The notes beneath the pieces are model-generated. The model was given only the letters and a program-made list of their open reading frames with translations. It did no database searches and was not told the origin of the DNA. 64,000 nt of DNA, taken from contig NW_027117338.1 of the NCBI RefSeq assembly GCF_038025025.1, forward strand, positions 930,001-994,000, written 5' to 3'. Both the position numbers and the translations under genes were made by a program. The DNA comes from Phyllosticta citribraziliensis. Taxonomy: Eukaryota. Shown piece by piece: positions 3,365-55,070 of this stretch (position 1 is the stretch's first letter; each line of letters starts with the position of its first letter).

Positions 3365-4508
3365 TTACGCGCCCTCGTCGTCGTCACCAACGCGGATGGT
3401 TCCCTCAGAGCCGAGGCCGTGCGACCAGTATCCGCCGAGTTCGACGTTGGTCTCGGGCAACTTGGCGTGGGTAAGGAGCAACCAGATACCGAAGACGGGC
3501 TTGGCCAACACATCAAGAATGGCGTAGGCAATGATTTCGGCGTCGACCGAAGCCTTGCGGGAACCGTCGGCAACACCCCAGACACTGACGAATGTTAGTA
3601 AAATGACAATTGGCAGGGGAAACAGAACTTACATCGGGTAGGCAGTCCAGAGGATAAGAGTGAAGGTAGCAATGGCACCGAAGAACTTGCTGACCTTGCT
3701 GCCCTTGGCCGTCGCGAAGCGGTTGCCGTGAACGGCAAGGTGCCAGACAAGAACGAGGTAGGCGATGCAGGCAATGGCGTACCAGCCCCACTTCTGGGGG
3801 GTTCCCTCAGCTCCAAAGGCAGCAAAGAGACCAGTCAGGATCATGATCAGGTCGGCACCAATGGCAATGATAGTGTGGCCTCCATCAATACCAGCAAGGA
3901 GGCAGAGGTCGAGTAACAGAAGAGGTGTGGTGAGACTCCAGTCAACGTAACGTGCCCAATAGACTTCGCGGTAGATGTCGCTGTACGTGTCGGGGACGTG
4001 GCTGTGAGACTGGCGGACCTGGACGTGGTGGTAGGCAACACCGTGGCCGGTGGCCATTCCGTAGTAGGAAATGGCAGCAATGACGGTGATGAAGGTAGTG
4101 ATGACGTGGTACAAACGACGCGACTATGACGAATTAGACGGATTGCAAGCCAACCAGATTGCCAAAGCATACCATCGGGACGGACCACGACAAGGCAGAG
4201 AAGATGACCGAGGCCACGACCATGATCACAAAGACCACCCACAGGGTCCGCTTTCCATCGTCAGAAGCGAGCTGGTACTCGGCCGGATCGGCTGGAATTG
4301 GTCAGATTCGAAAGTGTTGCAAATTCTCGACGAGGACATACGCTTGACGGTTGGGCCAGGGTCAAGTGGGACGGAGCCAGTGCTGAGGCGTTGTTAGTAG
4401 GTGCAACATGGCGGCGACAAGGGAAGACAGCTCTCGCCTCGTGGGAATGAGCAAGCTCGAAGTCTTGGACTTCTTGAGCATCTCTGCAACCTGTTCCGGG
4501 TGGATCAT
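3365..4508 (-). CDS. nop-1: Fungal microbial rhodopsin (opsin), Leptosphaeria rhodopsin/NOP-1 family, ~313 aa
   Basis: Exons 4508-4438, 4382-4342, 4291-4173, 4123-3633, 3584-3365. N-terminus MIHPEQVAEML; helix C RYVDWSLTTPLLLLDL; helix G LDVLAK with the retinal-binding Lys; C-terminus GTIRVGDDDEGA. Confidence 0.95.
4383..4437 (-). other. Probable GC-AG intron (opsin intron 1)
   Basis: AG|GCGAGA donor in the required phase 2; CTAAC branch and CAG acceptor; 55 nt. The only in-phase GT alternative (GTCCAA) is a poor donor. Confidence 0.6.
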
Positions 4509-5007: not shown

Positions 5008-6825
5008 CCCGCTCGCAACCTCCTCCTCTCGTCTCCACCTCCCGTCGCCCACCTGCACCGCACTTGAAACCTCCGCACCTTCCGGCTGCTGATGCGTTGC
5101 GATGCGAAGCCATGCTCTCTCTCGACCTTCGCCCGTTTTCCAACGCGACATTCCCGTCCCATCCTCTTGCGCCAATCAATCCATCCTCTCTCGTCCTGCC
5201 TGCCCGACCAGCCCTTCAATTCGGCTCTGTGCCGCCTGCTCCAAGTTCCTGGCCTTCCGCTGCATGGTGCCCGCTGAAAAGCTTGTCTCCCGACTGTTGA
5301 ATTCGATACATGACGCAGCCATTTGCTCATTCTGTGGCCATGTACAGGGGTCAATCGCATGAGGTCGACCTTCCCCAACGCCTCCTGCACCACCACACGC
5401 AGCCTGCCCGGACTTCCGACTTCACTGCCGTCACGCCCTCGTCGATTTTGCGGGCATTGTTGGATCGCCTTGGCGATGGATCTGATGTCAGAATGACCAC
5501 TCTGCGTCTCTCCGCCAACCTCGTGCATATACCCGTTGGTATCATCCCTGCCTTTCCTGTCCTTGATCACGATATATCCTCGTGTGCGGCCTTTTCTTCT
5601 TTTCTTCTGTGCCCTTTTGCACTGATCTTTCGTTTCGGGTTACGACGCAAGCCGATGTCGGCCCACCATACCTAGGTGTGTGAAGAGCCACAGCTGTTTT
5701 CCGCACCGAGACTGGACCAGCTGCTTCGTCCTCTCGCTCCTCATCGAAATCAACAGGTACTCGCATCTCCAAAAGAATGGCGGTGCCAAGTTCCTCCGCC
5801 AAGCCACGCCAGGTCATATGGAATCAGGCATCCTCTGCCGCTTCTGCCCAACCACCGGCAACCTAAAAATCTCGACCTCGCTCTCGTGCCTGGAAATTAT
5901 TGATGCCAAAAAATGGAAAAAATGTGCAACAATTCTTGAGACGAGCAATGTTAGAGAAGTCTCCTTAGAGCGGCTAAACGTGCCAATGTTGATCTAGACA
6001 CGGTAAGAGATTTCAATGCTTCTGCAGCCTTTTCGAGCTGTTTAATATGTCTTCACAAGACCGAAAAGAAAGAAAGAAAAAAAAACGAGTACGTGGAGAG
6101 AGACTCTGCATGCGCCACACGCCCGAAAGGAAGTCGGCTGTCAGAATACCTCACGCAGTAAGAAACCTACGAGGACGGGGCGTCTGGAAATCGAGCCTGG
6201 CCTAGCTGTCACGGATTGGTGGCGCCAAAGGACAACGCAGCAAAAAGATCAAAGAGCTTGGTGGTGTTCCATGACAAAGACGTGGCTGTCTGCGACCTCC
6301 CCTCATTCAGCTCCAACTTGAAGTCTCCTCCAGCGCGTTATCCTATTCTATGACCATTGAGCTGCAACGGACTCTGGAGTCATCAATTCCTCTTAGTTTT
6401 TTCGAGCTGGCTCTTTTTCCCCCCTAGTATTTGACCTCTTATAAACTTGGTTTCATGAGTGCCTTGGTTCACCATGCAGTCATGATGAAGTTCCCAAGTC
6501 TATGGTTGGTTCACGATTATTTCCTTTCAGTCGCCAATGTCTTTTGCTTGTCTCCTCAAAGAACCAAGTCTACAAATTTCCTCTCTTAATGGGTGCACAC
6601 TGCCCCCCAAGTACTTCGTCTTGGCTGGACCTTGAAAACTGTTCGCTTGCGCACGACACTCAGGTTTTTTCGAGCCAGCAGGTGTTGTGGTTTGCAGGTG
6701 CATTCAACCTCGCCCACACACGTCGACGACATCGCCGCACTCCACTTCACGACATCATCGACGACATAAGCGGCGACGTAAGCGCCAACATTGCCTGGCC
6801 ACGCCGCCAGCTACCAAAATCCATC

Positions 6826-8736
6826 ATGGCGAGCTCAACTTTGCTTCCCATGACACCCACACTGCCTGCGGACAGTGACGACTCCGACGACAAGTACAGC
6901 CTCACCAGCTTCGCAAGCATGGACGACTTTGCTCCGGAAGACATTGAGGCGGCTTCGCCTGACCGATCCATCTCGCCAACTTCCAGCTTGGAGCCCTGCG
7001 AATGCCACGGGGACGAATACTGCCGCGATGCAGTCATCGAAACCGTAGAGCTTGCTCTGGTTGTCCGCCCCAAGCTCATTGACATTCCTCCTCGCCGTCG
7101 CCCACCTCCACCGCCCGAGGACAACAGAGCCCACGATACGGACGCGTCTACTTGCAACAGCGATGTCACGCCCGCCATCACCGTCACCCAGAACCCATTG
7201 AGCGACGCTCGTGTCACCATTCCCTCCATTGACGACGAGCCTGTGAACAAGCGCGGCAGAAAGGATTCCGTCACCCTTACAGAAGCGCTTGCTTCGGAGC
7301 CTCCTGCCACCGTCACCGTCACCAGCCCTCCGGCCTCTGCGTTTCGTTCTCCCTCTCCACCCAAAGCTCGCGGCTTCAAGCGCTTGTTCAAAAGAAAGAA
7401 CAAGAATGGCAGCACATCGTCCGACCCGTCGACCCAGACTGAGCCCTTTCCGGAGATTTCACGCCCCATGACTCCGGACGAGCAGCAGTTCTCCGCGAGC
7501 TGCTCCAACAACTTGGAACCAAGTGCGGCCGTCGAGCAACGCGGTGTCCCCAAAGATATCCCCGCGTCCGACTTTGTCTTTGGAACTACTGCCAACCGTC
7601 GCTACGAACACCACGACTCCCCAGGTAGCCCTGCGATTCCTCGACACAACGAAGCGCGCAAGCGTGTCGCCGACCAGTACGTCGACGCTCATTACCGCAA
7701 CCTGAGCGCGACGACGACGACGCCCGCCACGGCGCCTACGCGCCGTTACAAGTATGCCGACACAATCGGCCTTGCTTCCAGGAGCGCTGCCGCCGCAGTT
7801 GCTCCTGGAGCCATGATGGCCACCGCTGCCGATCCAATCGCGACGCGGTCGCGTCTGCGACACAAGAAATCGCTCAAACAGCTCGTAAAGCGCTCTGGCT
7901 CGGACTCCATCCCCATCTCGTACCCCATTCCAGTCGAGCAGTCGTGGGAGCCGCTCTATCTCTACCGCCAGCATGAGACTGAAAAGGGAGATGGAATTCC
8001 ACAGCCATCGGGCCAACAGGGCCAACAGGGCCAACAGGAACCAGCCACTGCTGCCAACAACACGGCCGCGAAGGATACGGCCGCAAAGGACAATTACAGT
8101 CGCAACAACGGCATCTTCGCAACTCCCGTCCGCGCTGCCAGATCCGGCTCAGCGGCCACCATGTCTCCCGCGTCGTACCGCTCGCCGGCCGGCAGTCAAG
8201 CATCCTCGCCATGGCCCAGCCGCAAGAGCTCGCTGGCCCCGCCACCGACCGCCGCATCTCCCTCGCCGTCGAACAAGGGCGCTGCGGCCGGCGCCAGTCT
8301 GCTTAAGCATCAACAGCAGCGCTCCGGAGGCGCGTCGCCCTCGCGCTCGGCGCGCAAGAGCGACACGGCGAGCGAAAAGAGCGCGGGCAGTGCGTGGGAC
8401 ACATTCAGCGGCGTCGGAGTCGCAAAAGACGCAGAGGACGAGGAGGACGACAACAACAACAACCACAACGACTACAGCGACGTCGTCGACACCGAGGCCG
8501 ACGAGAAGAGAGAGCAAGAACGCGCTGCGAGGGCGGCGGCCGAAGGAGGCAAGATGGTGCTGCGCGCCTTTGGCCTGGGCGACTTGGACAAGGAGCTGGA
8601 AATCGGCCAGGTCAAGCAGGGCAAGCCCGAGGTCGTCGAGGTCGATGTTGCGAGGGCGGACGGCAGCGACGCGACGACGCTGGTGGAGAGCGACGAGATT
8701 TCGTCGTCGGATTACTCGTCTGATGACAAGGCGTAG
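6826..8736 (+). CDS. Hypothetical intrinsically disordered Ser/Pro/Ala-rich protein, 636 aa
   Basis: Long intronless ORF with coding-like codon use; ATG in a good context (CATCATGG) at 6826; basic patch KRLFKRKNK; acidic C-terminus. Confidence 0.75.
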   Translation: MASSTLLPMTPTLPADSDDSDDKYSLTSFASMDDFAPEDIEAASPDRSISPTSSLEPCECHGDEYCRDAVIETVELALVVRPKLIDIPPRRRPPPPPEDNRAHDTDASTCNSDVTPAITVTQNPLSDARVTIPSIDDEPVNKRGRKDSVTLTEALASEPPATVTVTSPPASAFRSPSPPKARGFKRLFKRKNKNGSTSSDPSTQTEPFPEISRPMTPDEQQFSASCSNNLEPSAAVEQRGVPKDIPASDFVFGTTANRRYEHHDSPGSPAIPRHNEARKRVADQYVDAHYRNLSATTTTPATAPTRRYKYADTIGLASRSAAAAVAPGAMMATAADPIATRSRLRHKKSLKQLVKRSGSDSIPISYPIPVEQSWEPLYLYRQHETEKGDGIPQPSGQQGQQGQQEPATAANNTAAKDTAAKDNYSRNNGIFATPVRAARSGSAATMSPASYRSPAGSQASSPWPSRKSSLAPPPTAASPSPSNKGAAAGASLLKHQQQRSGGASPSRSARKSDTASEKSAGSAWDTFSGVGVAKDAEDEEDDNNNNHNDYSDVVDTEADEKREQERAARAAAEGGKMVLRAFGLGDLDKELEIGQVKQGKPEVVEVDVARADGSDATTLVESDEISSSDYSSDDKA

Positions 8737-25855: not shown

Positions 25856-26884
25856 CTAGTAGTTGTTGGGGCAGCCCTTTTTCTTTTGAATGATGCCCGT
25901 GTCCCACGCACCCCATCCTAGAAGGCGATTCGCAATGTCGTTGACGTAGGAGATGGTGCCGCCGCTGCACGTCTGATCGAGGTTACTGGGATTGCATACT
26001 TTGCCGGAATTGTAGGCACGGAGGGTCTGGTATGGGTTTCCTGCTTGGGTCATTCCCGTCCAGGACTGGGTTGCGCCGCTGTTCAGGTACCACGCAAGTC
26101 CGGGTCCGCCTGTGGGCCAGCTGCCATACTGGCCCTCGACACCAGAGCGAATCATCTCTTCAATACTCTTGAGCGGCGTGCTTGGGTTGTACGGCTTGCT
26201 CCCGGGCGGTCCTTGCATCAGTCCACAATTCGCGACACCCGTGCAGGGGACGTTGAGCCTTCCAGTGGACTGCAGAGCTCGTCAGATTGTGTCTCTCGGA
26301 TGTGTTCAAGCAGCTTACCTCTTGCATCATGACAGCCAGAATTAGCCTTGCGTCTACCTTGTCCTGTTCGGAGACAAGAAGGATCTTCTCGCGAATCACA
26401 TCGTTAATGTTCCTGGTAACATTGTTGATGTTGATGACGTAGTTCTGTTGCTGTTGAATGGCAGGCAGGTTGGTTTTCCAAAGAGAGTCGAAACTGATCC
26501 ACTGCGCAAACTTTGGAAGCAGGCTTGCAGAGCCCCAGAAGCACTTGTAATCAAAGGTGTTCTGGTTTACTGCCTGGGCGTTGGGTGTTGCAACGTATGA
26601 ACGAAACCAGGCCATGCTGCCTGGAGAGGTTACACCTGGAGTTGTGCCGTAGAACGTCTGAGCCCGTGGAGTCCATGTTCTCCGGGCCTCGAGATCGTGG
26701 TGATGCATAGGCGATAGTAGATTTCCCGGCCCTTCTGGAAAGGTCCCAACGGGATGCGCAGACACGGTCCAGGATGCGACAAAAAGGGATGTGAGGACAA
26801 AAGAAAATACCTGACACGTATGTTAAGTTGTATTCTCAAAATTTCCGTGTGGTTTTTACGCACCTCGTTCAAACCCATCTTCAT
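25856..26884 (-). CDS. Secreted lysozyme-like/SLT (GH23-like) domain protein, ~308 aa
   Basis: Exons 26884-26864, 26810-26319, 26269-25856. Signal peptide MKMGLNEVFSFVLTSLFVASWTVSA; VDARLILAVMMQES (catalytic-type Glu), GLMQ, RAYNSG, YVNDIANRL. Confidence 0.85.
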
Positions 26885-28361
26885 GTTGAAGGATTTGCAA
26901 ATCTGGTGGTAAGAGATAAAATAGGTCACGACTCAACGCAAAACAAAGATGGACTGATAAATGGGACAGTAAAATGAGCAATACATAGACCGATGATGTT
27001 CGCCAAAGGTAGAATTGCAAGGACACTTATACACCGATGTTGCTCTTGTAACTTTCTGTCGCAGGTCAAGGTGTTGCCGGAAGCAGCGCAGAGTATGCCC
27101 TCGAAGCTCGAGAGGTGTCAGTAGAATCATAGATAGCGTGGGGCGTCAAGCTCAACCAGGAGACAGGAAAGGGATGAGCAAGTTTCCAAACTTCGACCCA
27201 AACAGAGGGCAGTTTCGTGAAAAACTCAGGCCAAGGGCAGGGTCTGTTTTGCTGATTTGTTGTATTGCTTGGTGTTTTGGTCGCACAAACCATCGCCTTA
27301 GCACCTATCCGGTTCCTCCAGCGCTACTAGAGATGGCTTCTTTTAGGAAACCGGACAGGGTCCACTCTCGGTTGCGGCCCACCTAGGCAGGAATCTCCAA
27401 CGGCAATGCCGTCGAAGGTTGGGTGCATTCTTCGGCTCTCCGTAACAAGTCGCTGACAGTGTCGGCCACTTTCGCGACCAATAAAGCCCAAGGTCACAAC
27501 TGCAGCCAGCGACATTGGCCGGTGAAGTCCAAGACCAGATTCCGCAGAGCGGAAGGAGTGCTGAGGACGCGCGGCGCAGACCGTTTGCGCAGTTGCACAG
27601 TGCGCAGGTAGGGCCACGCCATGTGCAAGTTGACGCGAATATTTCGAACGTGATGTTTGCCGATATGTAGCACCCCTTTTACAATCCGTCGTCTACCAGA
27701 AAGAAGATGCGGACCTGTTGAAAAATGCCAAACTGGATCTACCGCCGAGCGATGGAAAGACAGCGCATTGAGTGACAAGGCTTCCAAATAGATCGTCAGC
27801 GGAAAGTGCAAATTCACAAGCCAAGCGCGCCGACACATGGAAAAACTCTTCATTCATTATATGTACGTGGAGACAAAAGTTCGTCGCACTCGGAAGACGC
27901 AGTGCAAACCGAGGGCGAGAATCGAGACTCCTTCCAAGATTTTGGGTCAGAGATGCGTTGAGCGTCCGTTCAAGTAACAAGGTGTGTGTGCCGAACGCCG
28001 ATATCATGCTGCCCCAAAACCCACAGACGAGCCACTTGAGCCCGGCGAAGGGAGAGCTCGAAAGCGGGTAGAGGGATCAGCTCATCGGGTACACGCTAAG
28101 CTTTCATCATCTGTAGGGTCTGTCAGTTGGGCGCCGCAGCAGTAGAGGCTGAGCTTTGGAACTCACATGGTTAAAACGTGGAAGGATGGAGAGGAAAGAA
28201 AGTTTGGGAGCGGCCGACGGGCGAAATGTTGTGGCTGCGACCGCTGCTTAGTAACACGGACTAGTCCGCATTAGGAATCGAGGCGCTCGAAAATCGCTGG
28301 CCTCTCGACCAGTCACGACCACGTCAAAGCCCCGTTGCGCGTCGTCGAAGATAGCGCAGTC

Positions 28362-43006: not shown

Positions 43007-44181
43007 GTGGATGTTGCGTGCAGAATATTTGATTCTCATTCTTCTTTTGTCGAGACATGGGTTGGAGCTAGCGTTCTGTTCTTTTTCATCATGATACCAC
43101 GCCCATTGAGAGCAGACGGGACTTGGACGTTTTTTGGCGGCGTCCCCAATTTTCTTCGGCGTACCTCAACGGAGCATAGCGCATCATTCCTCATATTTTC
43201 ATGTCAATTGACTGTGGAAAATCTTCATCTTCAAATCAAACCGCTTTTTCTTGACCAATCATAACCCGAACAAGGGGGAATGCTCAACCCAAAACGTGAT
43301 TTTCGTGGTCGAAAGCTGATATACAAACTTTAAATGCAGAAGAAACAACAAGACAGGCTCGTCCACGTGCAATACCTATTTCCTGAATGCTTCCATTTTT
43401 CCCCCTCGATGATAGATCAAGCAAGAGTCCGTGCGAGGCGGAGGCGGGGGAGTCGCTGCTCGGGCTCCCGAGCGCCGATCCTTGCGAGCCGGCCCTCGGC
43501 CCGAGACTCCACACGCGTTTTGTGGAACAACTCGAGCTTCCCCCTTCAACGCACTCCGCTTCGACGCTCTACGTTTGCAGCTGGTTGCTCGATGCGTTGG
43601 TGTTAATGGGCACATTGACAGACTCAATCGCTACAAACGCTGACACTCTCGCAAGGTCTCATCAATTGAAGCAAATCTACGGTCGCTGGACGAGCTTCGA
43701 CCGCCGTGTCCGACGTTGAAGGACCAGTCAGGAGACCTCAGACGACGCGGCTAGGTCGGTTGCTTGTCTATCAAAGAACGTGTCAGCGAAGATACCCAAA
43801 GCAAGAGCAAGGAAATCTACTAAAGATCAACCCATCGAACTCAGGCTTCCTCAGGCGGGACTGTCAAGTGCTGGGATCATCCAACTGTCCGTAGCATCCA
43901 CCTCCCGGCCGCCACAGCAGTGACTCATTTGCACACAGAGCTCTCCGTCCGTCGAACGACAACTCATCAGGGGCGGGAGCGCACAAGCCTTTAAGCCAAA
44001 ATCACCAAAACGCGCCCAATCAAACGCGTAGCAGACGCGCGACAGCTGTCGCAGCAATTCCGATTGACATCAAAACCTACTTACCCTCGACCGGCCACTC
44101 ATCTCATCCCGCATTTCTACACCGTACACGAGATTCACCTTTCAACTTTTTTCCCCGGCCACGTACGAGACGACCAACATC

Positions 44182-44800
44182 ATGATTACGCCTGTGCTCC
44201 TCCGCGTGATGCGGCCCGCCGCCCTCCAGTTGTCCCCTACGCTCATCCGCTCCGCCGCTACGACGACTGCCGTCCCACCTTCAAAGAAGAACAGCACGCG
44301 CGCCTCGTCGTCGCCGCAATCAGCGCCAAAATCAGCATCTTCCAGATCCACGGCGCGCAAACCGACCGCGTCGCAGCGAGCCAAGGCAAGCAGCGGCGCC
44401 AGCAGCAGCAGCAGTCCTACTAGCGAAGACGCGGCCGCGTCGCAACGCCGTAGCGAAAAGGCGCTCGAGCACGCGCGGGAGTGGCAGAAGCAGCAGCAGC
44501 GAGAAGACGAAGAGGCGGCCAAGAAGAGGCAGCAGCAGCAGCGCCAGGGCGCGATGCGGAAGGAGTACAAGCCGGTGGCGCGCCGCTTGTTGGCGGCCAT
44601 CGTGGCGGCGCCTGTTGCCATTGTGTCGAGTTGGATGTTGTGGGAGAGACGTAAGTTTCTTCATTTTACGTTGAGTGAGAAGCATTGGCTGACTTGTTTG
44701 CGCGACGGCAGTTGTGCTGGGCAAGGAACAGAAACCTGTCCCAGAGGTGTCAGAAGGTTCGGCTGGAGACTCCGGCGCTGGCCCTGCGGGTGCGAGGTAG
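44182..44800 (+). CDS. Small probable mitochondrial single-TM protein
   Basis: Exons 44182-44650 and 44712-44800. Presequence-like N-terminus; EYKPVARR-TM-WER|LVLG. Confidence 0.75.
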
Positions 44801-45111
44801 GCGTGGATCATTGGGATCGTTTCACTGTGGACGAAAGATAGACGAGGGAGTGGTGAGTGAGTCTTTCAAGCGCTTTTGTAACATGCCAGCCTACGGGCTC
44901 GAGGGCATGGACACGAAGAGGCAACGCTTTGACGACTGATGCCGCAATGCTTCTGTAATATACGCGAAATGAGGCAACGACGTTGAGCCAGAGTGTTCAA
45001 TTGCATTCCTTCGTGCTTTCCTCGCGCAAATCAAACACACAAACCGCAAAATTTGTCCCGCTGGATTCGACGCCTCGTTTACATCATTTTTTCATTCACC
45101 GCGACGAGCCC

Positions 45112-46106
45112 TTAGAGCGAGGCCTTGAGCACCTTGAAGGCATCAGACCTGGATCCCTTGAAGCGCTCCTCGGCCGTCTTCCAGTTGATGACGGTCCAGA
45201 TGTTCTCGATGTAAGCCGCCTTGCCGTTCAGGTACTGTGTTCAAAGTTAGACTGCATCCACGCGGAGACGGAGCACAACAACAAGAACCTACCTGCAGGT
45301 AGTATGCATGCTCCCAGAGATCGATCCCAAACACTGGAACCTCGCCCGGTCCAACGATGGGGTCTTGGTCCTTGGTCGTGACGATAGCCAATCTCGGCTC
45401 CTTCGTTGCGCCTTCGACCTTGACGAGCCAGCCCCAGCCAGAACCCTGGATGCCGAGCAGAGCAGCGGTGAACTTCTCACGGAACTGCTGCTCGCCCCCA
45501 AAGGTCTCGGTGATCTTGGCGGAGAGCGAGGGTGCGGCCGTGGCGAGCTTGGTGTCGGACGAGTTTTGCGGGGCTAGGTTCTCCCAGAAGAGCGAGTGGT
45601 TGATGTGGCCGCCGCCATTGAAGCGGATGGCGGACTGCAGCTGGATTTGGTCGGGGACGTCGCAAGAAGTGATGGCGCTGCTGTACTTGGCGAGTGCGGC
45701 GTTGAGGTTCGTCACGTAGGTGGCATGGTGCTTGCTGTGGTGCAGCTCCATGATCTGCTTGCTGATGGCCGGCTCGAGGGCCTTGGGGTTGTGTTAGCAG
45801 GCATTGTCTTGGAGTTGGGGAGGTGTTGTGGCTGAGTCTCTAGCTGTGAGGGAGCATTCATGAGGTGGTTGGTTTTGGTGGATAGAGGAGTCAGGCGACT
45901 GGATGAAAGCTTACATCGTAGGGGTACGGCAGCGGAGGGAGCGAGTATTTTTGGACAGACATGGTGGTGGTGTTCTCTCCGATTGACGGGTTAGGGTTGT
46001 TGAAGAAGGGTAGTTGGAAGAAGGAGGCAGAGGCGGGAGCAATGAGATTGGAGAAGACCAGGAGACAGGAGACGGCAAAGGACATGAAGGTGTTGATTGT
46101 CGACAT
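45112..46106 (-). CDS. sod2: Manganese superoxide dismutase, non-mitochondrial type (267 aa with signal peptide, or 219 aa from ATG 45962)
   Basis: Exons 46106/45962-45915, 45781-45293, 45234-45112. LPPLPYPYDALEP, HHSKHH, NGGGHINH, QGSGWGWL, DLWEHAYYLQY. Confidence 0.97.
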
Positions 46107-46213
46107 CGGTGCGGGGTCGTGCCTGAGAGGGTTATGACACCATGATGTCCTCGGCCAAGCAGGAGATGGCATTTTGAAGAGACGTGACTGGCTGCACCTC
46201 TGCCTGCACTGGT

Positions 46214-46266
46214 CAAGGTCAAGAAGCTCAAACTTGCTCAACACACAGGACAGCTTAACTTGCTCA
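46214..46266. promoter_or_regulatory. Cluster of putative copper-starvation elements (AACTTGCTCA x2, AAGAAGCTCA) plus CAAGGT in a bidirectional promoter
   Basis: AACTTGCTCA at 46231-46240 and 46257-46266; AAGAAGCTCA at 46221-46230; CAAGGT at 46214-46219. Resembles Mac1 TTTGCTCA and ZafA CAAGGT cores. Confidence 0.6.
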
Positions 46267-46490
46267 TACACCCTCAACGGCCGCGCGTGAAACAATCGAC
46301 GGCTGAAACACAGACTGCACTGGACGGGCCGACCCTGCGGATTGATCGGGTTATAAGAAGCTGTGCTGCAACAAGAGAGGCTGGTCAGATCCCCTCTGTA
46401 CAAACCGACACAAAACGTGGTGTTGACCCTGCGACGTTCCAGCCCCGAGAGCAACGCCACCCGAAGTCCGAGACGGCCGATTCGACAACC

Positions 46491-47008
46491 ATGTGCGGAG
46501 ACTCGTGCACCTCGACTCGACTTTCCTCGGGCGGCACCATCGCTGTCCTGCGCTCTCCGCACGACGCTACCGGCCAGCCCGTCACCAATGAGCCCGTCGC
46601 AAGCTGCGACTTGCTCTTCGACAACCCTACCAAAACTGCCAGTGCTCGTACGCGGGCCGTCCTCCGCGCCAGGGATGGCGTGTCTTTCGACAGCTTGAAA
46701 ACCTACTTTATGCTCATCCAGTAGGCTGCTCCACCCAGTACTCCCTCTTTGCATTGCTAACGGTTCACGCGTTGAACAGCCGCGATGGAGACCTCCGCAC
46801 CCGCGCATCCATGAGCGACGAGGTCCGCACTGCCCTCCACGCGATCGAGCTGAAACCCGCTGTGGATGAACACCAGAACCATGCGCTGATGGACCTGCCC
46901 GGTGCTCTGGACCTCAATGTCGGCACAGAGCGAGGCGTCATTGGTCGCCGAGTGTCGATTGTCCGCGGCGGAGAGCGAGTCGCCGAGGGCATCATCGGAT
47001 ACAACTGA
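46491..47008 (+). CDS. Cu/Zn-SOD-fold (CCS domain II-like) protein lacking most metal ligands, 152 aa
   Basis: Exons 46491-46720 and 46780-47008; CAACCATG start; TATAAG at 46352. Splicing creates YFMLIH|RDGDL (cf. SOD1 HGFHVHEFGD); C-terminus GVIGRRVSIV...RVAEGIIGYN (cf. IIGRTLVV...RLACGVIG). Confidence 0.75.
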
Positions 47009-48157
47009 GGTCATGGTTTTTTCTTTCGTTCCAGCAAAGGCGCCGGGTACGGTAGAGCTTGGGTTTAGGTCGGCTTCGGAGTTCATGGTCAAGGAATCTG
47101 GGGTTTCGTGCGAGTTCCACATGGTCACCTATCGATACCATTAGCGGCAGCAGATCGCCAGCAATTCTCACGTCCGCATCTTCACAAGGCGTTATCTGCT
47201 GGCTTTCCCATCTTCTTTCCGCAGTCTGCACCTATCGGAGTGCTTGCCTGCCACTGCTCACTTGTCAGTACCTCAGCCCTACCCGCTGCGACAAGACGGA
47301 TTGACAGGGTCTCGACATTGGCAACTCTTGGCCATGCGCCACCACAGTAGGTGTCTAAAGAAATGCGACAGACCTCCTGGCCATATGAGCGCTCTCAAGG
47401 AGCATTCATCTGCTGCTACAGTCGCGCTTAGGGAGCATTTATTCACTGCTGCATCCAGATCCAGGGAGTCTCGTTTCTTTCTACAACCATTGTGCCGCGA
47501 CCGGCTGCCAACTTCATCGCCAGATGGCAGGTGACATTTCGCCGTTTGTTCGTCAATCGTTTCGATGCGCGCCGTAGACGCTGTGGCACTGTGACTCCAG
47601 TATCTGTCGCCACCTCGGGCCGCGCGTATACCGACGAGGCCGAGATGCTTCAAACATCTCGGAGCTTCTGCAAAGGGCTCGATGCGCGAGACTATCACAG
47701 GGTCGAAATATTGAGGCACAGCTTGCTTTGCAAATACTATTAGGCCTATCATCCTCGGTTCTGCGCGGCATACGCTCTCGAAGGCCCAAAGACCAGGAAC
47801 CTTTGCCGGGGACGTGCCACTCGTTGGCAAAACTGCCAAACAGAGATTTACAGACCCACTCCTCCACGCTCTCTTACCTGAGAAAAACTCTGCTCACCCG
47901 AGCTTCAAGGACCCAACGACGGAGCTCACGGACTTCATGATGGCATCAGACCAGGTTTTAGTCCAGTCTCTCACGACTTTTCCCGCCGCCTCTTTTTCGC
48001 GTTATAGTCATTCGTGTCCGCGTCTGTGTCTTCGACTCACAAGCTCCCGTTTTCAATTCCTACCACCACCACCATAGCTGCGAAGCAGTTCCACCGTCAA
48101 GCTGTTGCCAGTCCGTAACTGCTAGGTCCCGCCAGACGCGTTCGCGTACCCGCCAGC

Positions 48158-49985
48158 ATGGGAGCGTACGATGAGAAGGGCGCCGACGCCATCGCCAATT
48201 CCACACCCACCAGCAAGACCGGCGCTGCCGATGGAGCTCACGAGTTCCCCGGGAGCGAGGGCTCCTCTACCCAAGATCTGGAGAAGCAGGGTCCCGACTC
48301 GTCACATGAGCTCAAGAGAAACCTCAAGAGCCGCCACCTCCAAATGATCGCGATAGGTGCGACTGTCTGGCACATAGAGCTTCCCTGCAATTTCTAATCC
48401 GAGCACAACGCAGGTGGTACCATTGGAACGGGTCTCTTCATCGGTAGCGGCGAAGCCATCGCGGAAGCTGGACCGGCCGGCGCACTCATCGCATACGCTT
48501 TCATCGGAACCATTGTATACTCGGTCTGCGTCTGCCTTGCTGAAATGGCAACATACATCCCCGTCTCCGGCGCCTTTTGTGTATTCGCCGCACGCTTCGT
48601 CCACCCTAGTCTTGGTTTTGCCATGGGCTGGATCTACTGGGTATCATGGGCCCTGACCTACGCTCTCGAGCTCACTGCGGCCGGTTTGATCATTCAGTAT
48701 TGGGACAAGGACCTGTCAATTGCCATATTCATCGCCATTTTCTGGGTCGCAATCACCGCCATCAACTTCTTGCCTGTGCGCTTTTATGGCGAGCTCGAGT
48801 TCTGGTTTGCAGGCATCAAGGTCCTCATGGTCATTGGATGTGAGAATCCCTCTCGGCGACGCTTGGCTTCTGGCGCTGACATTTTGTAGTCACCATCTTT
48901 GCTATCTGTGTCGACGCTGGCGTTGGCAAGAACGGCTACATGGGCTTTTCCACGTGGTCCAATCCCGGTGCTTTTGCGCCCTACCTTGTCACATCAAACG
49001 ACTCCACCGCCAAGTTTGTCGGATTCTGGGCTGTCCTCATCCAGGCCGGCTTCACGTACCAGGGTACGGAGCTGGTTGCTATTGGTGCTGGCGAGACAGG
49101 TGAGTCTGCGCAAGACACTTTCTTAGGATGACACTGACCAGTCATGAAGCCAACCCCCGCAAGACCGTCCCGTCGGCGATCCGTAACACCTTTTGGTCCA
49201 TTCTCCTTTTCTTCATGGCCATCATCTTCTTTGTCGGCCTTCTCGTGCCCTACGACAACGAGGGTCTCCTCAGCCAAGGCAACGACGCCTCCAGCTCGCC
49301 GCTCGTCATTGCTGCCCAGCTCGCCGGAGTCAAAACGCTGCCCGGAATCATCAACGGCGTTCTCCTGACTGTCGTCTTGTCCGCCGCCAACGCCAACGTC
49401 TACTCGGGCAGCCGCATGATTATCGGTCTCGCTGATGCTGGTTGCGCGCCAAAGTTCTTCACAAAGACAACCCAGGGCGGTGTGCCGTACTGGTCGGTCG
49501 CCTTCACGGCGTCCATTGGGCTGCTGGGCTTCATGAACCTGTCATCCACCGGTGGATCCGTTTTTGACTGGTTCCAAAACATCTCCGGAGTGGCCGGGTT
49601 TATTTCATGGGGATGTTGTTGCTGGTGCCAGATCGCCTTTATGCGCATCCTCAAGGCGCGCGGCATCAGCCGCCAGTCCCTCCCCTACATTGGCAGTCTG
49701 CAGCCCTTCACGGCGTGGTACGGTCTCTTCTTCAACGTCCTCATTATCTTCACGCAAGGATTTACCGCCTTCATGCCATGGAACACGTCCAATTTTTTCG
49801 TTGCGTACATTTCGCTCATCCTCTTCGCCGTCCTCTTTGTCGTCCACATGCTCGTCACCAGGAGCAAGTTTGTCAACCCTGCAGAGGCCGACATCGATAC
49901 GGGCCGCCTGCAGCCCGAGACGGAGGTATGGGAGGAGAGCAGCGATTCCTTCTTTTCGCGGATGAAGAGCAAGATTCGGGGTTGA
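48158..49985 (+). CDS. Amino acid permease (APC/YAT family, Can1/Dip5/Put4-like)
   Basis: LKRNLKSRHLQMIAIGGTIGTGLF, YGELEFWF, YQGTELVAIGAGE, NPRKTVPSAI; three introns. Confidence 0.95.
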
Positions 49986-52739: not shown

Positions 52740-54827
52740 TCAACCGCTAACCTCTTGTTTCTCATCCAACACTTCCTCCTTTTCCACTGTCGCCGCATCG
52801 ACTGACCGGCCACGCACCAAGTTGTCTAGTCCAACTTGTCGATTGACCTCCCTCATCCGCTCCTTATCAGCCTCGGCCGTACCCTCGCTACCAAACAGAA
52901 TGTCCATTTCCTCCAGCGTAAGCTCTTTGGTCTCAGGGACGACAAAGTAGATGCTACAAAGGTCAGTGATGATTTTCACAATGAACAGGATGACTTACAA
53001 CGCAGCACCGCCGAAGGTCAAAAGTCCAAAAAAGATGTAAGTGCCGTACGTAATCCCCGTTAGCATGTCCGGAGTGATTTGGCCTTGATTATTTTCTGTC
53101 AGCAGAAATATTCTGGTGGATGAGCTTACTTACCAATGATAAAGTTGTTCATCCAGTTGCTACTCGCACCTAGAGCAATGCCATACGGTCGATTCGAGAG
53201 CGGCCAGATCTCAGCAATGAGAATCCAGGCACATGGACCCCTAGCTCAAGCCATTAGTTTCGTCGTGCGGTCAACACATGAGCAAAAACAGACCAGCTGT
53301 ATCCAAAGTGCACCACAAACAGCCAGACCATGACTACCGCAGCCCAGCCCGCTGCTCGGTGAGAAGGCCAATCGTCCTGATTCTTGGCGACAATAACCGC
53401 GATGATTATGTGGCAAGTTGCCATACCAATGGCCCCGACAATGAGGACCGGCTTCCGCCCAAGTTTGTCGACATACATGACGGCAGGTATGGTGGCCAAG
53501 AACATGACGATGCCGACTACGCCCGTCGCGAGGAGCGACACCGAGTTGGACGACATGCCCAATTTGTTGAAGATTTGAGGGGCGTAGTACAAAATCGCAT
53601 TGATGCCTCGGCCAGTCAGTACGTCCTCGGAAGAGTCTTTTGGCGAATGGAGCACTCACCGGTCCACTGCTGGAAGAACATGGTCACCGTTGCGCAAATG
53701 ACGCGGTAGAACATGGGCTTTGATTGAAACAGAGATCCGATTGCGACCCATTGCCTATGGCAAATTAGCACCGAGAAGAAGACAATGAGAGATTTGAGGG
53801 GACTTGCAGTTTGAACACATTCCACGCCGTCGGCTGCGACAGGTGGGGAAACTTTTCCGCCAGCGTCCTCTTCTCAAACAGACTCTGCGCGCGGATCTCA
53901 GCAAACTCCAACTCGATGAGCTCGTGATCCTGTGGCAGGCTGCGTAGTTGCGCCAAAATCCTTCTGGCTTGAGGTTCCTTTCCGTGGTGGACCAGCCAAC
54001 GAGGACTGAAGGGCATGAATATCATGCCGACACCCAGCAAGACCGCAGGAACTACTTGGAGCGAGAGCGGAAGAAGCCACGCCGCTTGGTGCTGGCCGTC
54101 GCCTGTGCCGCCGATGTAGTTGCAGCCGTAGTCGATCCAGAAGGACACCATGATTCCCAGGGTGATGGAGAGCTGCTGCAAGCCGACAAGCGCGCCGCGG
54201 ACTTCAGGGGGTGCGATTTCAGCGTTGTACATGGGGACGACCATGGAGAGCGCTCCGACGCCCATACCTTTACGCCGCGTCAGTGAAGTAGGCCAAAACC
54301 AGCGTTCGAGAAGAATCACTTGCCGGTAATGAATCTCCCTCCGAGAATGGAATGTTGGATTCCACCTGCAGCCGCCGTCGTCTGGATGATGACGCCGACA
54401 ACGAATATTCCGACATTTATCAAGATCGTATATTTTCTCCCAAGTACCTCGGCCAGGAAACCACTATACAGCGTCCCAAACCAAGCTCCAAGCTCCAGGA
54501 TGCTGGTCAGCCAGCCCATCTTCGTGGAATTTTCGTCGCCGGTCCAATCGGGCAAAGCTGCGCCGCGTCAGAAAAAAGTTCTTCGCCTCGAGCTCAGGGG
54601 TTGCGGTCAGATGTCGCACTTCTGTCAAACGAGTTCATGGTCAAGACCCCGCTGAAGACTCCCTGATTGTAGCCGTATAGGAGCCCTCCCAGACACGCGA
54701 AGCATGCTATCCCAAATACTTTGAGGTTCTTCAGTAGCGCTAGCGGACCGGTCGAGCCTGAGAGCTCCTGCCGGCGGGTGAGCGCCGCCGAGTCGAACTG
54801 CGCGGTTGTGCCACCTGCTGGTGCCAT
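52740..54827 (-). CDS. Sugar porter (MFS), probably a pentose/xylose transporter of the XltA/XtrD/STR1 type
   Basis: GGLLYGYNQG, PMYNAEIAPPEVRG, PFSPRWL, FFQQWTGINAILYYAP, VDKLGRK, PETKELTLEEMD; multi-exon. The subfamily call is from recall. Confidence 0.9.
53755..53807 (-). other. GC-AG intron in the sugar transporter
   Basis: CT|GCAAGT...CTAAT...TAG|G is the only nearby donor giving the required phase 2 (VFKL-QWVAIG). Confidence 0.88.
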
Positions 54828-55070
54828 GGTGGACGTGTGCAATAGTGCAGCAAATCACTCAGTGTAAGTGTTCTTTGGGCACTGATTCAAAATTCAAGTC
54901 GGCTGCGAGCCAGGATGATGAGCCTGCCAGCTTTCCTCCATCGCGTCCGCCGCGCCGACAGCACAGAGATATATATCAGTCACGACAGACGAAAGACGAA
55001 CGCTGTGCCGGAGCAACAACGACGTGAGCTGCTGAGCTCCTCCCTGCGAGTCGACCAGTCGCACCCGCTG

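Follow-up and report, generated by a model that had tools for sequence, protein, structure and literature searches.

Conserved TGCTCA promoter boxes and a predicted loop-less SOD1/CCS-type barrel in a gene family of Pezizomycotina, paired head-to-head with a Mn-SOD gene in Phyllosticta

Domain II of yeast CCS lacks the SOD1 ligands and loop elements. Regulation of SOD genes by Mac1 has been described in several fungi. For F. oxysporum, the accessible text of a ChIP-seq study gives DHNTGCTCANNN as the Mac1 consensus and reports that sod3, which encodes a cytosolic Mn-SOD, is bound by Mac1, on which its induction at low copper depends (PMC11563359). According to the same text, Mac1 copper acquisition is required for virulence, the Mac1 targets include three uncharacterised ones, and divergent pairs with shared Mac1 sites (ctr3/fre9, fre10/FOXG_02393 and fre12/ctr1b) are typical of the regulon; FOXG_18820, which lies next to sod3, has the same orientation as sod3 and a product that is not described in that text (PMC11563359). 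The available portion of a study on A. fumigatus gives TGTGCTCA as the AfMac1 motif found by EMSA (PMC6473158). When copper was withheld from P. destructans, Mn-SOD3 was up 2.3-fold and Cu/Zn SOD was down 2.1-fold, as stated in the accessible part of that report (PMC12113139).

We analysed a stretch of DNA of 64,000 nucleotides, hereafter the window, in which an earlier note had placed a Mn-SOD gene and a gene for a small SOD1/CCS-fold protein. Both genes were found to be real, divergent and head-to-head in the positions proposed, and the tandem TGCTCA boxes claimed for their shared promoter are present as two copies, both on the plus strand. The distance between the start codons needs correction, as the gene-model coordinates place the two ATGs 528 bp apart and not 385 bp. 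The features of the locus are as follows.

45112..45962, minus strand: Mn/Fe-SOD gene of predicted cytosolic (Sod3-like) type, from Pfam, RNA contig joints and solved relatives; ATG at 45962, stop codon at 45112-45114
45962-45915, about 45781-45296 and about 45237-45115, minus strand: the three exons of the Mn-SOD gene, plus the stop codon; the introns are about 133 and 58 nt
45963..46490, between the divergent start codons: intergenic region of 528 bp, presumed bidirectional promoter
46231-46240, plus strand: box 1, Mac1/CuRE-like, AACTTGCTCA
46257-46266, plus strand: box 2, Mac1/CuRE-like, AACTTGCTCA, 230 bp upstream of the small gene ATG
46491..47008, plus strand: small gene, encoding a predicted 152-aa loop-less SOD1/CCS-domain-II-like barrel with a Met-Cys N-terminus, from the gene model, P0001, the splice joint and AF2
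46491-46720 and 46780-47008, plus strand: exons 1 and 2 of the small gene; stop codon at 47006-47008
46721-46779, plus strand: sole intron of the small gene, 59 nt, GT..AG

The minus-strand gene matched the Pfam families Sod_Fe_N (3.3e-27) and Sod_Fe_C (2.3e-20), and its closest solved relatives were fungal SODs of 211-212 aa (E 3e-66). Exon 1 supplies only 16 residues ahead of the conserved core, and the alignment of exon 2 starts at chain position 16-17 of these fungal SODs, which bears out the suggested absence of a mitochondrial presequence. Judged from its sequence, the product is an Fe/Mn SOD of the cytosolic fungal Sod3 type, with a predicted cytosolic location.

The product of the small gene was identical to the database protein P0001, which is named for Phyllosticta citribraziliensis. 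Contigs from three RNA runs, two from one species (X1 and X2, organism A) and one from a second, related species (X3, organism B), carried the small gene joint 46720>46780, and spliced contigs of the same runs also joined across both Mn-SOD introns (45780>45914 and 45234>45293, with CT..AC ends). Therefore, transcription and the modelled splicing are confirmed for both genes, and expression of the small gene, on which the earlier proposal depended, is evident in two species. The contig from organism B was colinear with the window from 45971 through the small gene. The unitig depths, which cannot rank genes, were about 25,000 for both the Mn-SOD and the small gene in X1, with 681 and 2,982 for neighbouring genes, about 19,000 against 727 in X3 and 1,813 against 744 in X2.

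Within the intergenic region, contigs of X2 ended at 46023 and resumed at 46446, although contigs cannot define true transcript ends. X2 was without cover at 46115-46396, and one X1 contig spanned 45921-46364, with the same limit on reading transcript ends from contigs.

No Pfam hit was found for the 152-aa protein; for PF00080 (Sod_Cu), none of three Phyllosticta proteins matched at E<=10 and none of 41 family members at E<=1. Two profiles searched against PDB sequences reached SOD1 at E 0.9-1.5 over about 30 residues, and nothing significant was found. The best SOD sequence matches were loop-deleted SOD1 constructs, and the best non-SOD match of phmmer and the profiles against PDB sequences was glycerol dehydratase (E 0.03). 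The AF2 model of the small protein had a pLDDT of 84.6 and a pTM of 0.80, with residues 1-10 poorly modelled (mean pLDDT 56). Foldseek revealed 66 matches at E<=0.001, of which every listed one was a Cu,Zn-SOD (best 4mcn_A, 4.5e-5), and the loop-deleted SOD1 4bd4 showed a TMt of 0.60-0.62. With VIA-align, a Z of 10.2 was obtained over 107 aligned residues with an rmsd of 3.0, covering model residues 13-152, and human CCS domain II (1do5_B) showed a Z of 9.2 with 25% identity. When 48,161 chains were scanned without bias, the top 14 consisted entirely of SOD, CCS or SOD-like chains (Z 9.9-6.7), yeast CCS among them (1jk9_B, Z 8.6; 1ej8_A, Z 8.5).

As evident from AF2, Foldseek and VIA-align, the model contains the eight-stranded Greek-key beta-barrel of Cu,Zn-SOD. 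The four His that serve as Cu ligands and the three His and one Asp that serve as Zn ligands are lost at all but one position. In particular, Val138 occupies the position of SOD1 His120 and Glu146 that of Cys146, and the Cys57-Cys146 disulfide and the electrostatic loop VII are absent, with strands 134-139 and 142-151 joined by a two-residue turn. The small protein is thus predicted to adopt the Cu,Zn-SOD/CCS-domain-II barrel but to lack the disulfide, the Cu/Zn ligand set and the electrostatic loop. We infer that it cannot be a dismutase and cannot bind a Cu/Zn pair as Sod1 does. Two suggestions of the earlier note hold up here: the SOD1/CCS fold agrees with Foldseek, VIA-align and the scan of 48,161 chains, and the description as ligand-less agrees with the Val and Glu at the His120 and Cys146 positions and with the single His conserved in the family.

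A homodimer of the small protein was also modelled, and it formed through a SOD1-type interface with an ipSAE of 0.46, compared with 0.21 for the best control; the model held up against its controls. The ipSAE mark was reached by 21 of 30 microbial proteins solved as pairs and by none of 23 solved as single chains; for eukaryotes it was reached by 17 of 29, but by only 1 of 7 among those without an older solved relative. The runs agreed in at least 92% of contacts, and the partner pLDDT was at least 69. The interface comprised residues 17, 19, 40, 78-83, 124-126, 129, 131-134 and 147-152, and the most conserved segments of the protein (76-82, 129-136 and 145-152) form this SOD1-type interface in the model. 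The pass may stem from solved SOD1 dimers that the model has memorised, and it is silent on Sod1 and Ccs1 as partners.

The small protein belongs to an unnamed family that extends across Pezizomycotina and is without a Pfam model. A phmmer search yielded 47 representatives, a profile search yielded 152 proteins from Dothideomycetes, Orbiliomycetes, Xylariales, Penicillium and Fusarium, and a Fusarium member used as the query yielded 189 proteins from Hypocreales, Glomerellales and Magnaporthales. Genera with the family include Fusarium, Colletotrichum, Verticillium, Bipolaris, Parastagonospora, Pyrenophora, Trichoderma and Metarhizium. Among 267 distinct full-length members, the Met-Cys start was found in 265, Arg133 in all 267, Gly80 in 266, His77 in 248 and Glu146 in 242; M1, C2, G129, G132 and R133 were invariant in the 72 members less than 62% identical. 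His77 is the only His conserved family-wide, and we take it, by a motif match, to be the counterpart of SOD1 His48. The ESM Atlas returned only Ascomycota clusters labelled 'hypothetical protein', apart from one weak lead (score 0.80) in which 36% of the members carried Sod_Cu. No FOXG tag was listed for the F. oxysporum cluster members of the family. A full-text search for FOXG_01130, FOXG_02393, FOXG_18820, A0A0D2XKB5, FVEG_07509 and FFUJ_13786 found PMC11563359 only, and no earlier description was found in the literature on fungal SOD-like proteins and copper starvation or on Phyllosticta SOD and copper.

The promoter of the small gene was compared at two scales. In the window, TGCTCA occurs at 40 sites, and there are two same-strand pairs of sites spaced within 50 bp, compared with 0.77 expected per window; the pair outside the shared promoter is at 4448/4475, and about 0.006 pairs would be expected in one particular 528-bp region. 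Each of the two promoter copies lies inside an exact AACTTGCTCA 10-mer, and the core of box 1 is 256 bp upstream of the small gene ATG and 273 bp from the Mn-SOD ATG. The 10-mer was not significantly enriched within the window (8 sites with at most one mismatch, 5.1 expected). The boxes are thus unremarkable within the window alone, and their significance lies in conservation across lineages. Related loci were collected with one Cladosporium member (P0023) as the query, giving 14 metagenome loci with a family member. In all 11 promoters with a located ATG, representing five lineages, TGCTCA was present on the same strand as the small gene, 141-304 bp ahead of its start codon. These boxes were mostly AACTTGCTCA and often tandem, and same-strand tandem boxes at equivalent positions were found in five loci (L001, L002, L003, L005 and L007). 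A blind scan of the 450 bp upstream revealed that only 2 of 1,880 6-mers were common to all five lineages, namely TGCTCA and the overlapping GCTCAA, and none of 2,000 draws of random segments from the same loci contained TGCTCA in 5/5 lineages. Among the aligned promoters, AA..TGCTCA was invariant.

Both window boxes fit the F. oxysporum consensus DHNTGCTCANNN as given in the accessible text, having the TGCTCA core, the DHN 5' flank and more than one copy, and the box of one metagenome locus (L014) agrees at every position with the AfMac1 motif TGTGCTCA as given in the available portion of its source. We read the boxes as putative Mac1 sites because they have the same core as yeast TTTGCTCA, the A. 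fumigatus motif and the consensus from ChIP in F. oxysporum. The TGCTCA boxes thus stand as a conserved promoter element that fits the published Mac1 motifs, as had been proposed.

The pairing itself was far less conserved. A Mn-SOD gene adjoins the small gene in 1 of the 14 metagenome loci (L014), where the Mn-SOD ATG at 4423 (minus strand) and the small gene ATG at 5096 (plus strand) are head-to-head, 672 bp apart, with three TGCTCA boxes; no other flanking gene is common to L014 and the window. Beyond this locus, the pairing was seen only in the window and on the RNA contigs of the related species. No Mn-SOD was present near the small gene in L003, L005, L009, L010 and L011, each with at least 3.8 kb on each side, nor was one detected in the shorter L001, L002, L007, L008, L012 and L013; in the four other lineage groups whose flanks could be read, the pairing was missing. 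Boxes were found at family promoters with or without an adjoining Mn-SOD, and they travel with the small gene and not with the pair. Since the pairing is missing in most loci with readable flanks, adjacency is dispensable, and the link is not a fixed two-gene module but probably a shared regulon. The two-gene unit of the earlier note does not survive this comparison as a conserved module (1/14 loci paired, five loci with flanks of at least 3.8 kb without Mn-SOD); the conserved unit is the small gene with its boxes.

The best explanation, to which we tentatively give a probability of about 45%, is that two copper-starvation genes share one promoter here and that the small protein is a dimerisation module. 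Under copper scarcity, the small gene would be activated by Mac1, and so, by way of the common 528-bp region, would the Mn-SOD gene, whose product would replace Cu,Zn-Sod1. The partner of the small protein would be a second copy of itself or immature apo-Sod1/Ccs1, and the small protein would either hold a pool of apo-Sod1/Ccs1 or keep copper off Sod1 during the takeover by Mn-SOD, with the near-invariant Cys2 as its presumed reactive or metal-contacting group. A dimerisation module is favoured because the small protein is no dismutase and its conserved segments form the dimer interface in the passing model. A more specific form, in which a starvation-only loop-less SOD1 look-alike with a reactive N-terminal Cys docks Sod1/Ccs1 and blocks or reverses the copper loading of Sod1, is quite doubtful. 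If true, it would mean a protein-level copper sparing alongside the transcriptional Sod1-to-Sod3 switch, in many major plant pathogens.

The same promoter evidence would serve equally if the small protein itself buffered or chaperoned copper in the cytosol, being induced by starvation and delivering the scarce metal to priority enzymes. Here, the N-terminal Cys, after removal of Met, would bind Cu(I), perhaps paired across a dimer or with His77. The Met-Cys start (265/267) and His77 (248/267) fit such a role, as does the MCxxxC N-terminus of Botryosphaeriales, with its second Cys at position 6; strand 1 (residues 17 and 19), which follows the N-terminal arm, is in the predicted interface, so two arms could meet. 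However, a single Cys is common to the whole family, and a second one at position 6, 7 or 10 is limited to 6, 16 and 8 of 267 members, respectively; the model is poor at residues 1-10 and the sequence contains no MxCxxC or CxC chaperone motif, and we consider this role unlikely. It is likewise improbable that a factor other than Mac1 binds the TGCTCA boxes and that the signal is a different one, for example development, oxidative stress or the status of iron or zinc. The extended form AAC(T/A)TGCTCA does differ from yeast TTTGCTCA at one position, and in Cladosporium-like loci the second box has a CACGTGA E-box as its neighbour, which in L009 overlaps the corresponding site. Against this, the core and 5' flank fit DHNTGCTCANNN, the sole ChIP-derived Mac1 consensus for a filamentous ascomycete in the accessible texts, the L014 box matches TGTGCTCA exactly, and the adjoining gene is of a type, cytosolic Mn-SOD, that the available text of the F. 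oxysporum study reports as a proven direct Mac1 target.

The pairing could also be meaningless inherited synteny, with the small gene a decaying SOD1 paralogue without a functional link to its neighbour. The loss of the SOD catalytic apparatus and the missing pairing in most lineages examined are what such decay would leave, but the family is kept across several Pezizomycotina classes with invariant residues, correctly spliced transcripts of the small gene come from three runs and two species, its promoter element is conserved, and L014 keeps the head-to-head pair despite having no other flanking gene in common with the window. Decay is accordingly a very improbable account.

The analysis makes a concrete question testable, namely whether the Sod1/Mn-SOD metal swap has a protein-level partner. 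An unnamed family without a Pfam model is now defined by a barrel predicted to be a dead SOD1, by an N-terminal Cys that is almost invariant and by a Mac1-type promoter with a phylogenetic footprint. Uncharacterised proteins are still found in the Mac1 regulon as presented in the accessible text (PMC11563359).

Compared with the Mac1 regulon and its Sod1-to-Mn-SOD switch (C. albicans Sod3 and F. oxysporum sod3), the locus is alike in having a cytosolic-type Mn-SOD gene with upstream TGCTCA boxes; it differs in the SOD1-fold partner gene, which is undescribed in the accessible accounts of that regulon, and the copper dependence of the window pair is putative. B. subtilis YojM (1s4i, Z 6.7) likewise has the SOD fold with an incomplete metal site and does not act as a dismutase, but it is a bacterial lipoprotein that is unrelated in sequence, context and regulation. 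Sod1 (PF00080), and especially the engineered monomeric SOD1 with loops IV and VII deleted (4bd4, 7cjv and 5j0f), has the same barrel (Z about 10) and a weak motif likeness, with GVIGRrv...aeGiiG in the family resembling iIGRtlvvh...asGviG in SOD1, and the homodimer model of the small protein uses the equivalent interface; in contrast to Sod1, the small protein has no Pfam match and no ligand set, and its loop VII is a turn. Whereas CCS has three domains, the small protein is a single 152-aa domain without the Atx1-like MxCxxC domain I and the CxC domain III, has a near-invariant Met-Cys N-terminus and shows no significant sequence similarity to CCS. Its likeness is to CCS domain II (yeast Ccs1/Lys7; 1ej8 and 1jk9 chain B), a non-dismutase SOD1-like Greek-key barrel that docks onto Sod1 through the SOD1-type interface in solved structures.

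The divergent pair consists of a Mn/Fe-SOD gene (hereafter Mn-SOD) and a gene for a small barrel protein resembling SOD1 and CCS domain II (the small gene and small protein); the genes and the boxes between them were placed as follows.

45112-45962, minus strand: Mn/Fe-SOD gene, three exons, ATG at 45962, stop codon at 45112-45114
46231-46240, plus strand: box 1, exact AACTTGCTCA 10-mer
46257-46266, plus strand: box 2, exact AACTTGCTCA 10-mer
46491-47008, plus strand: small gene, two exons, ATG at 46491, intron 46721-46779 (59 nt; GT, CTAAC, AG), 152 aa

The distance between the two start codons was 528 bp, not 385 bp as the earlier note had it; apart from this spacing, its observation is real. 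Exons 2 and 3 of the Mn-SOD matched Pfam Sod_Fe_N (3.3e-27) and Sod_Fe_C (2.3e-20 and 2.1e-5), and exon 1 supplies only 16 residues ahead of the conserved core. The alignment of exon 2 began at position 16-17 of the solved fungal SODs of 211-212 aa (E 3e-66) and at position 27 of 1kkc_A (221 residues, titled manganese superoxide dismutase); together with the 16-residue exon 1, this leaves no space for a mitochondrial presequence, as had been claimed. The small gene product was letter-identical to a Phyllosticta citribraziliensis database protein named uncharacterised, and its orthologues in P. citriasiana and P. capitalensis showed 88% and 81% identity.

Positions 44000-48200 were compared with contigs of three public runs, two from the same organism (X1 and X2) and one from a related organism (X3), all labelled "RNA?" as a guess only and with contig depths that cannot rank genes. 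The 46720>46780 joint of the small gene intron (GT..AG) and the 45234>45293 joint of a Mn-SOD intron (CT..AC ends) were found in X1, X2 and X3, and the 45780>45914 joint of the other Mn-SOD intron (CT..AC ends) in X1 and X2; X3 differed here, joining 45781>45943 with other letters between. A further joint, 44650>44712, was found in the upstream neighbour gene. Because the contigs omit exactly the predicted introns, they represent spliced RNA; in two species, therefore, the small gene is expressed and its transcript is processed in line with the gene model.

One X1 contig (45921-46364) spanned the 5' end of the Mn-SOD together with most of the sequence between the two genes, including the boxes, and an X2 contig starting at 46446 passed through the small gene into an amino-acid permease gene (~48126-49985); these could be long 5' leaders, read-through or non-coding transcription, among which the contigs do not discriminate. 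Downstream of the small gene, a short dispersed repeat (47343-47500, also at 45851-45861) carried many contigs of X1, X2 and X3 with loose ends at 47399, ~47437-47453 and 47494, and the summed depth was higher there. Its core, GGAGCATTYAT, occurred three times in the window (47399, 47432 and, inside the first Mn-SOD intron, 45851) against 0.03 expected.

The promoter was compared with 14 metagenome contig loci (L001-L014) retrieved with one Cladosporium member of the small-protein family. TGCTCA was listed up to 800 bp upstream wherever the start codon could be placed, namely in the window and 10 loci; L004 and L006 (5'-truncated) and L012/L013 (no located start) were left out.

Same-strand TGCTCA boxes upstream of the small gene
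Window: -256 / -230, AACTTGCTCA twice
L001: -241 / -202, AACTTGCTCA twice
L002, L003: -235 / -204, AACTTGCTCA twice
L005: -242 / -211, AACTTGCTCA twice
L007: -249 / -219, AACTTGCTCA twice
L008, L009: -275, AACTTGCTCA, and an additional box at -141, CTTCTGCTCA
L010, L011: -194 / -193, AACATGCTCA
L014: -304, AATGTGCTCA

All 11 promoters thus carried a same-strand TGCTCA between -141 and -304, and AA..TGCTCA was invariant across the aligned promoters. In a blind scan of 450 bp upstream in five lineages, only two of 1,880 6-mers were common to all of them, namely TGCTCA and GCTCAA, which overlap, and none of 2,000 random segment draws from the same loci placed TGCTCA in all five. Within the 64 kb of the window, the motif by itself was unremarkable; the support for the boxes is a phylogenetic footprint, by which they are assigned to the small gene. 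The tandem boxes reported earlier in the shared promoter stand, as two exact AACTTGCTCA copies on one strand.

We also observed a CACGTGA E-box just 3' of the second box in the Cladosporium-like promoters (aligned: L001, L003, L005, L007 and L009); it overlaps the equivalent place in L009, and at this position the window reads CGCGTGA. Besides the two boxes, an exact AACTTGCTCA occurs only once more in the window (27175-27184, minus strand), ~290 bp ahead of a gene on that strand that starts near 26884. The product of this gene begins like a signal peptide and gave no Pfam match, and an extra ATTGCTCA lies closer to its ATG; the gene may be a further target of the same factor, or the match may be due to chance. 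A second same-strand TGCTCA pair, AGCTTGCTCA and GAGATGCTCA (4448-4480, minus strand), has downstream of it a bacteriorhodopsin-like (opsin / HSP30-type) gene (~3365-4300, minus strand; Pfam Bac_rhodopsin 2.3e-30).

The pair itself was less widely kept than the boxes. A tblastn search with the window Mn-SOD exon revealed a Mn-SOD in only one of the 14 loci, L014, in the same arrangement as in the window.

L014, ATG at 4423, minus strand: Mn-SOD, 17-residue exon 1, no presequence
L014, ATG at 5096, plus strand: small gene, 672 bp from the Mn-SOD

The L014 small protein shared only 40-56% identity with its closest named relatives (Aulographum, Rhizodiscina), and tblastx of L014 against 20 kb of the window revealed nothing in common besides the Mn-SOD; the pair was therefore retained while its flanks changed. 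An RNA contig of the related organism was colinear with the window from 45971 through the small gene. In L003 and L005 (Cladosporium-like), L009 (~55% identical to Cladosporium) and L010/L011 (very divergent), the neighbours of the small gene were unrelated, and no Mn-SOD was found over 8.5 kb or more on its upstream side and 3.8-10 kb on its downstream side; the shorter loci L001, L002, L007, L008 and L012/L013 likewise had none within the stretch they cover. The upstream neighbour in L009, a sugar transporter (5878-8150), was homologous to the window transporter at 52755-54836, 5.7 kb downstream of the small gene, with up to 92% identity in protein segments, which makes part of the neighbourhood old even though L009 lacks the Mn-SOD. 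Of the two-gene unit proposed in the earlier note, what stands is the pair in two of six lineage groups, the window and L014; it was not seen in the other four, and the "module" is an arrangement confined to some lineages, made of two members of what is probably one regulon.

Pfam gave no match for the three Phyllosticta small proteins (E<=10) or for 41 family members (E<=1). The AlphaFold2 model built from a 41-sequence alignment (mean pLDDT 84.6, pTM 0.80) was all-beta except for one short helix. Foldseek returned 66 PDB matches at E<=0.001; among those listed, all were Cu,Zn-SOD, the best was metal-free human SOD1 (4.5e-5), and the top target-normalised TM-scores belonged to engineered SOD1 lacking loops IV and VII. 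VIA-align gave Z 10.2 over 107 residues (rmsd 3.0), covering model residues 13-152, with the highest identity (25%) for human CCS domain II (Z 9.2). In a scan of 48,161 chains that did not rely on Foldseek, SOD, CCS or SOD-like proteins filled ranks 1-14 (Z 9.9 to 6.7), yeast CCS among them (1jk9_B 8.6, 1ej8_A 8.5), and only unrelated sandwiches followed (Z <=6.5). Profile searches of PDB sequences offered no significant support, the best SOD1 match having an E of only 0.9-1.5 with a weak alignment of family GVGGdGVIGRRVS...AEGIIG to SOD1 LSGDHSIIGRTLVVHEK...ASGVIG. Since the three structural comparisons agree, the predicted SOD/CCS barrel is well supported at the level of fold, if not by sequence statistics.

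The sole conserved histidine was His77, present in 248 of 267 distinct full-length members; the other conserved positions were glycines, hydrophobics, Thr54, Asp81, Arg133 (267/267), Arg134, Glu146 and the C-terminal Asn152. A site requiring six histidines and one aspartate thus cannot exist in the family. His77 presumably corresponds to the SOD1 copper ligand His48 (H-V-H-x-x-G-D versus I-H-R-D-G-D in the family), and in the printed profile alignments SOD1 His120 and Cys146 are replaced by Val138 and Glu146. In the model, a two-residue turn links strands 134-139 and 142-151, so the electrostatic loop is gone. Judged from these residues, the small protein cannot perform SOD1-type superoxide dismutation, and calling it ligand-less was essentially correct; the earlier fold, ligand-loss and promoter-box claims hold and are now stronger.

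A trait absent from the earlier note is the Met-Cys N-terminus, found in 265 of 267 members (MCGP, MCNG, MCGD and others), with a conserved GG further on at positions 14-15. In an exhaustive phmmer search of 1.84 billion representatives, 47 proteins passed E<=0.001, almost all being 130-170 aa long; a profile search gave 152 (many Dothideomycetes orders, Orbiliomycetes, Xylariales, Fusarium and other Hypocreales, Coniella, Penicillium canariense), and a Fusarium query 189 (Hypocreales, Glomerellales, Magnaporthales, Microascales and others). By these searches, the family extends far beyond Phyllosticta. No earlier description was found in open full text; nearly all records are "hypothetical", and at least three UniRef entries are named [quoted passage not shown]. 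The public name "oxoglutarate/iron-dependent oxygenase" of several Botryosphaeriaceae and Pyrenophora members (P0051, P0072, P0080, P0084) looks like a propagated misannotation, as the predicted fold offers no support for it. Where the Dothideomycete proteins stop at ...GWN, Sordariomycete members continue to -SPSL (43), -RASL (12), -SPSI (8) or -QPSL (7), and the Mn-SOD here ends similarly in -KASL (45115-45126); these ends may be a shared C-terminal signal.

The homodimer prediction gave an ipSAE of 0.46 against 0.21 for the best control, a value reached by 21 of 30 microbial proteins solved as pairs and none of 23 single chains, and by 17 of 29 in eukaryotes, where it fell to one of seven for those with no older solved relative. 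Runs agreed in at least 92% of contacts, with partner pLDDT of at least 69. The predicted interface (residues 17, 19, 40, 78-83, 124-126, 129, 131-134 and 147-152) coincided with the most conserved motifs of the family and with what we take to be the SOD1 dimer and SOD1-CCS docking surface. This pass may be the model's memory of SOD1 dimers; the model displays a SOD1-like interface and says nothing on actual binding. Our preferred reading is that the small protein would be a copper-starvation-induced, non-catalytic mimic of SOD1/CCS domain II, pairing with itself or with immature Sod1/Ccs1; the decoy function is a hypothesis. The main rival is putative copper handling via Cys2, the residue of the Met-Cys start.

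The copper-starvation part of the mimic reading can be compared with known Mac1 systems. Mac1 ChIP-seq in F. oxysporum under copper limitation gave the consensus 5'-DHNTGCTCANNN-3', likened to TTTGCTCA of S. cerevisiae and C. albicans, with sod3, a cytosolic Mn-SOD, directly activated (PMC11563359). The A. fumigatus Mac1 EMSA motif is given in a review as TGTGCTCA (PMC6473158), which the L014 box matched exactly; every box in the 11 promoters fitted DHN-TGCTCA. In P. destructans, copper withholding reportedly raised Mn-SOD3 2.3-fold and lowered Cu/Zn-SOD 2.1-fold (PMC12113139). Because the boxes fit Mac1 motifs and sod3 is a Mac1 target, we infer on good grounds that the family would be part of the Mac1 copper-starvation regulon; it is a similarly well-grounded inference that the boxes would also serve the divergent Mn-SOD in Phyllosticta and L014. 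The family is represented in F. oxysporum by P0159 and 14 cluster mates, none given a FOXG tag; the candidate tags were mentioned in open full text only in PMC11563359. That study describes three uncharacterised Mac1 targets, FOXG_01130, FOXG_02393 and FOXG_18820, the last adjoining sod3, and divergent pairs with common Mac1 sites as typical: ctr3/fre9, fre10/FOXG_02393 and fre12/ctr1b (PMC11563359).
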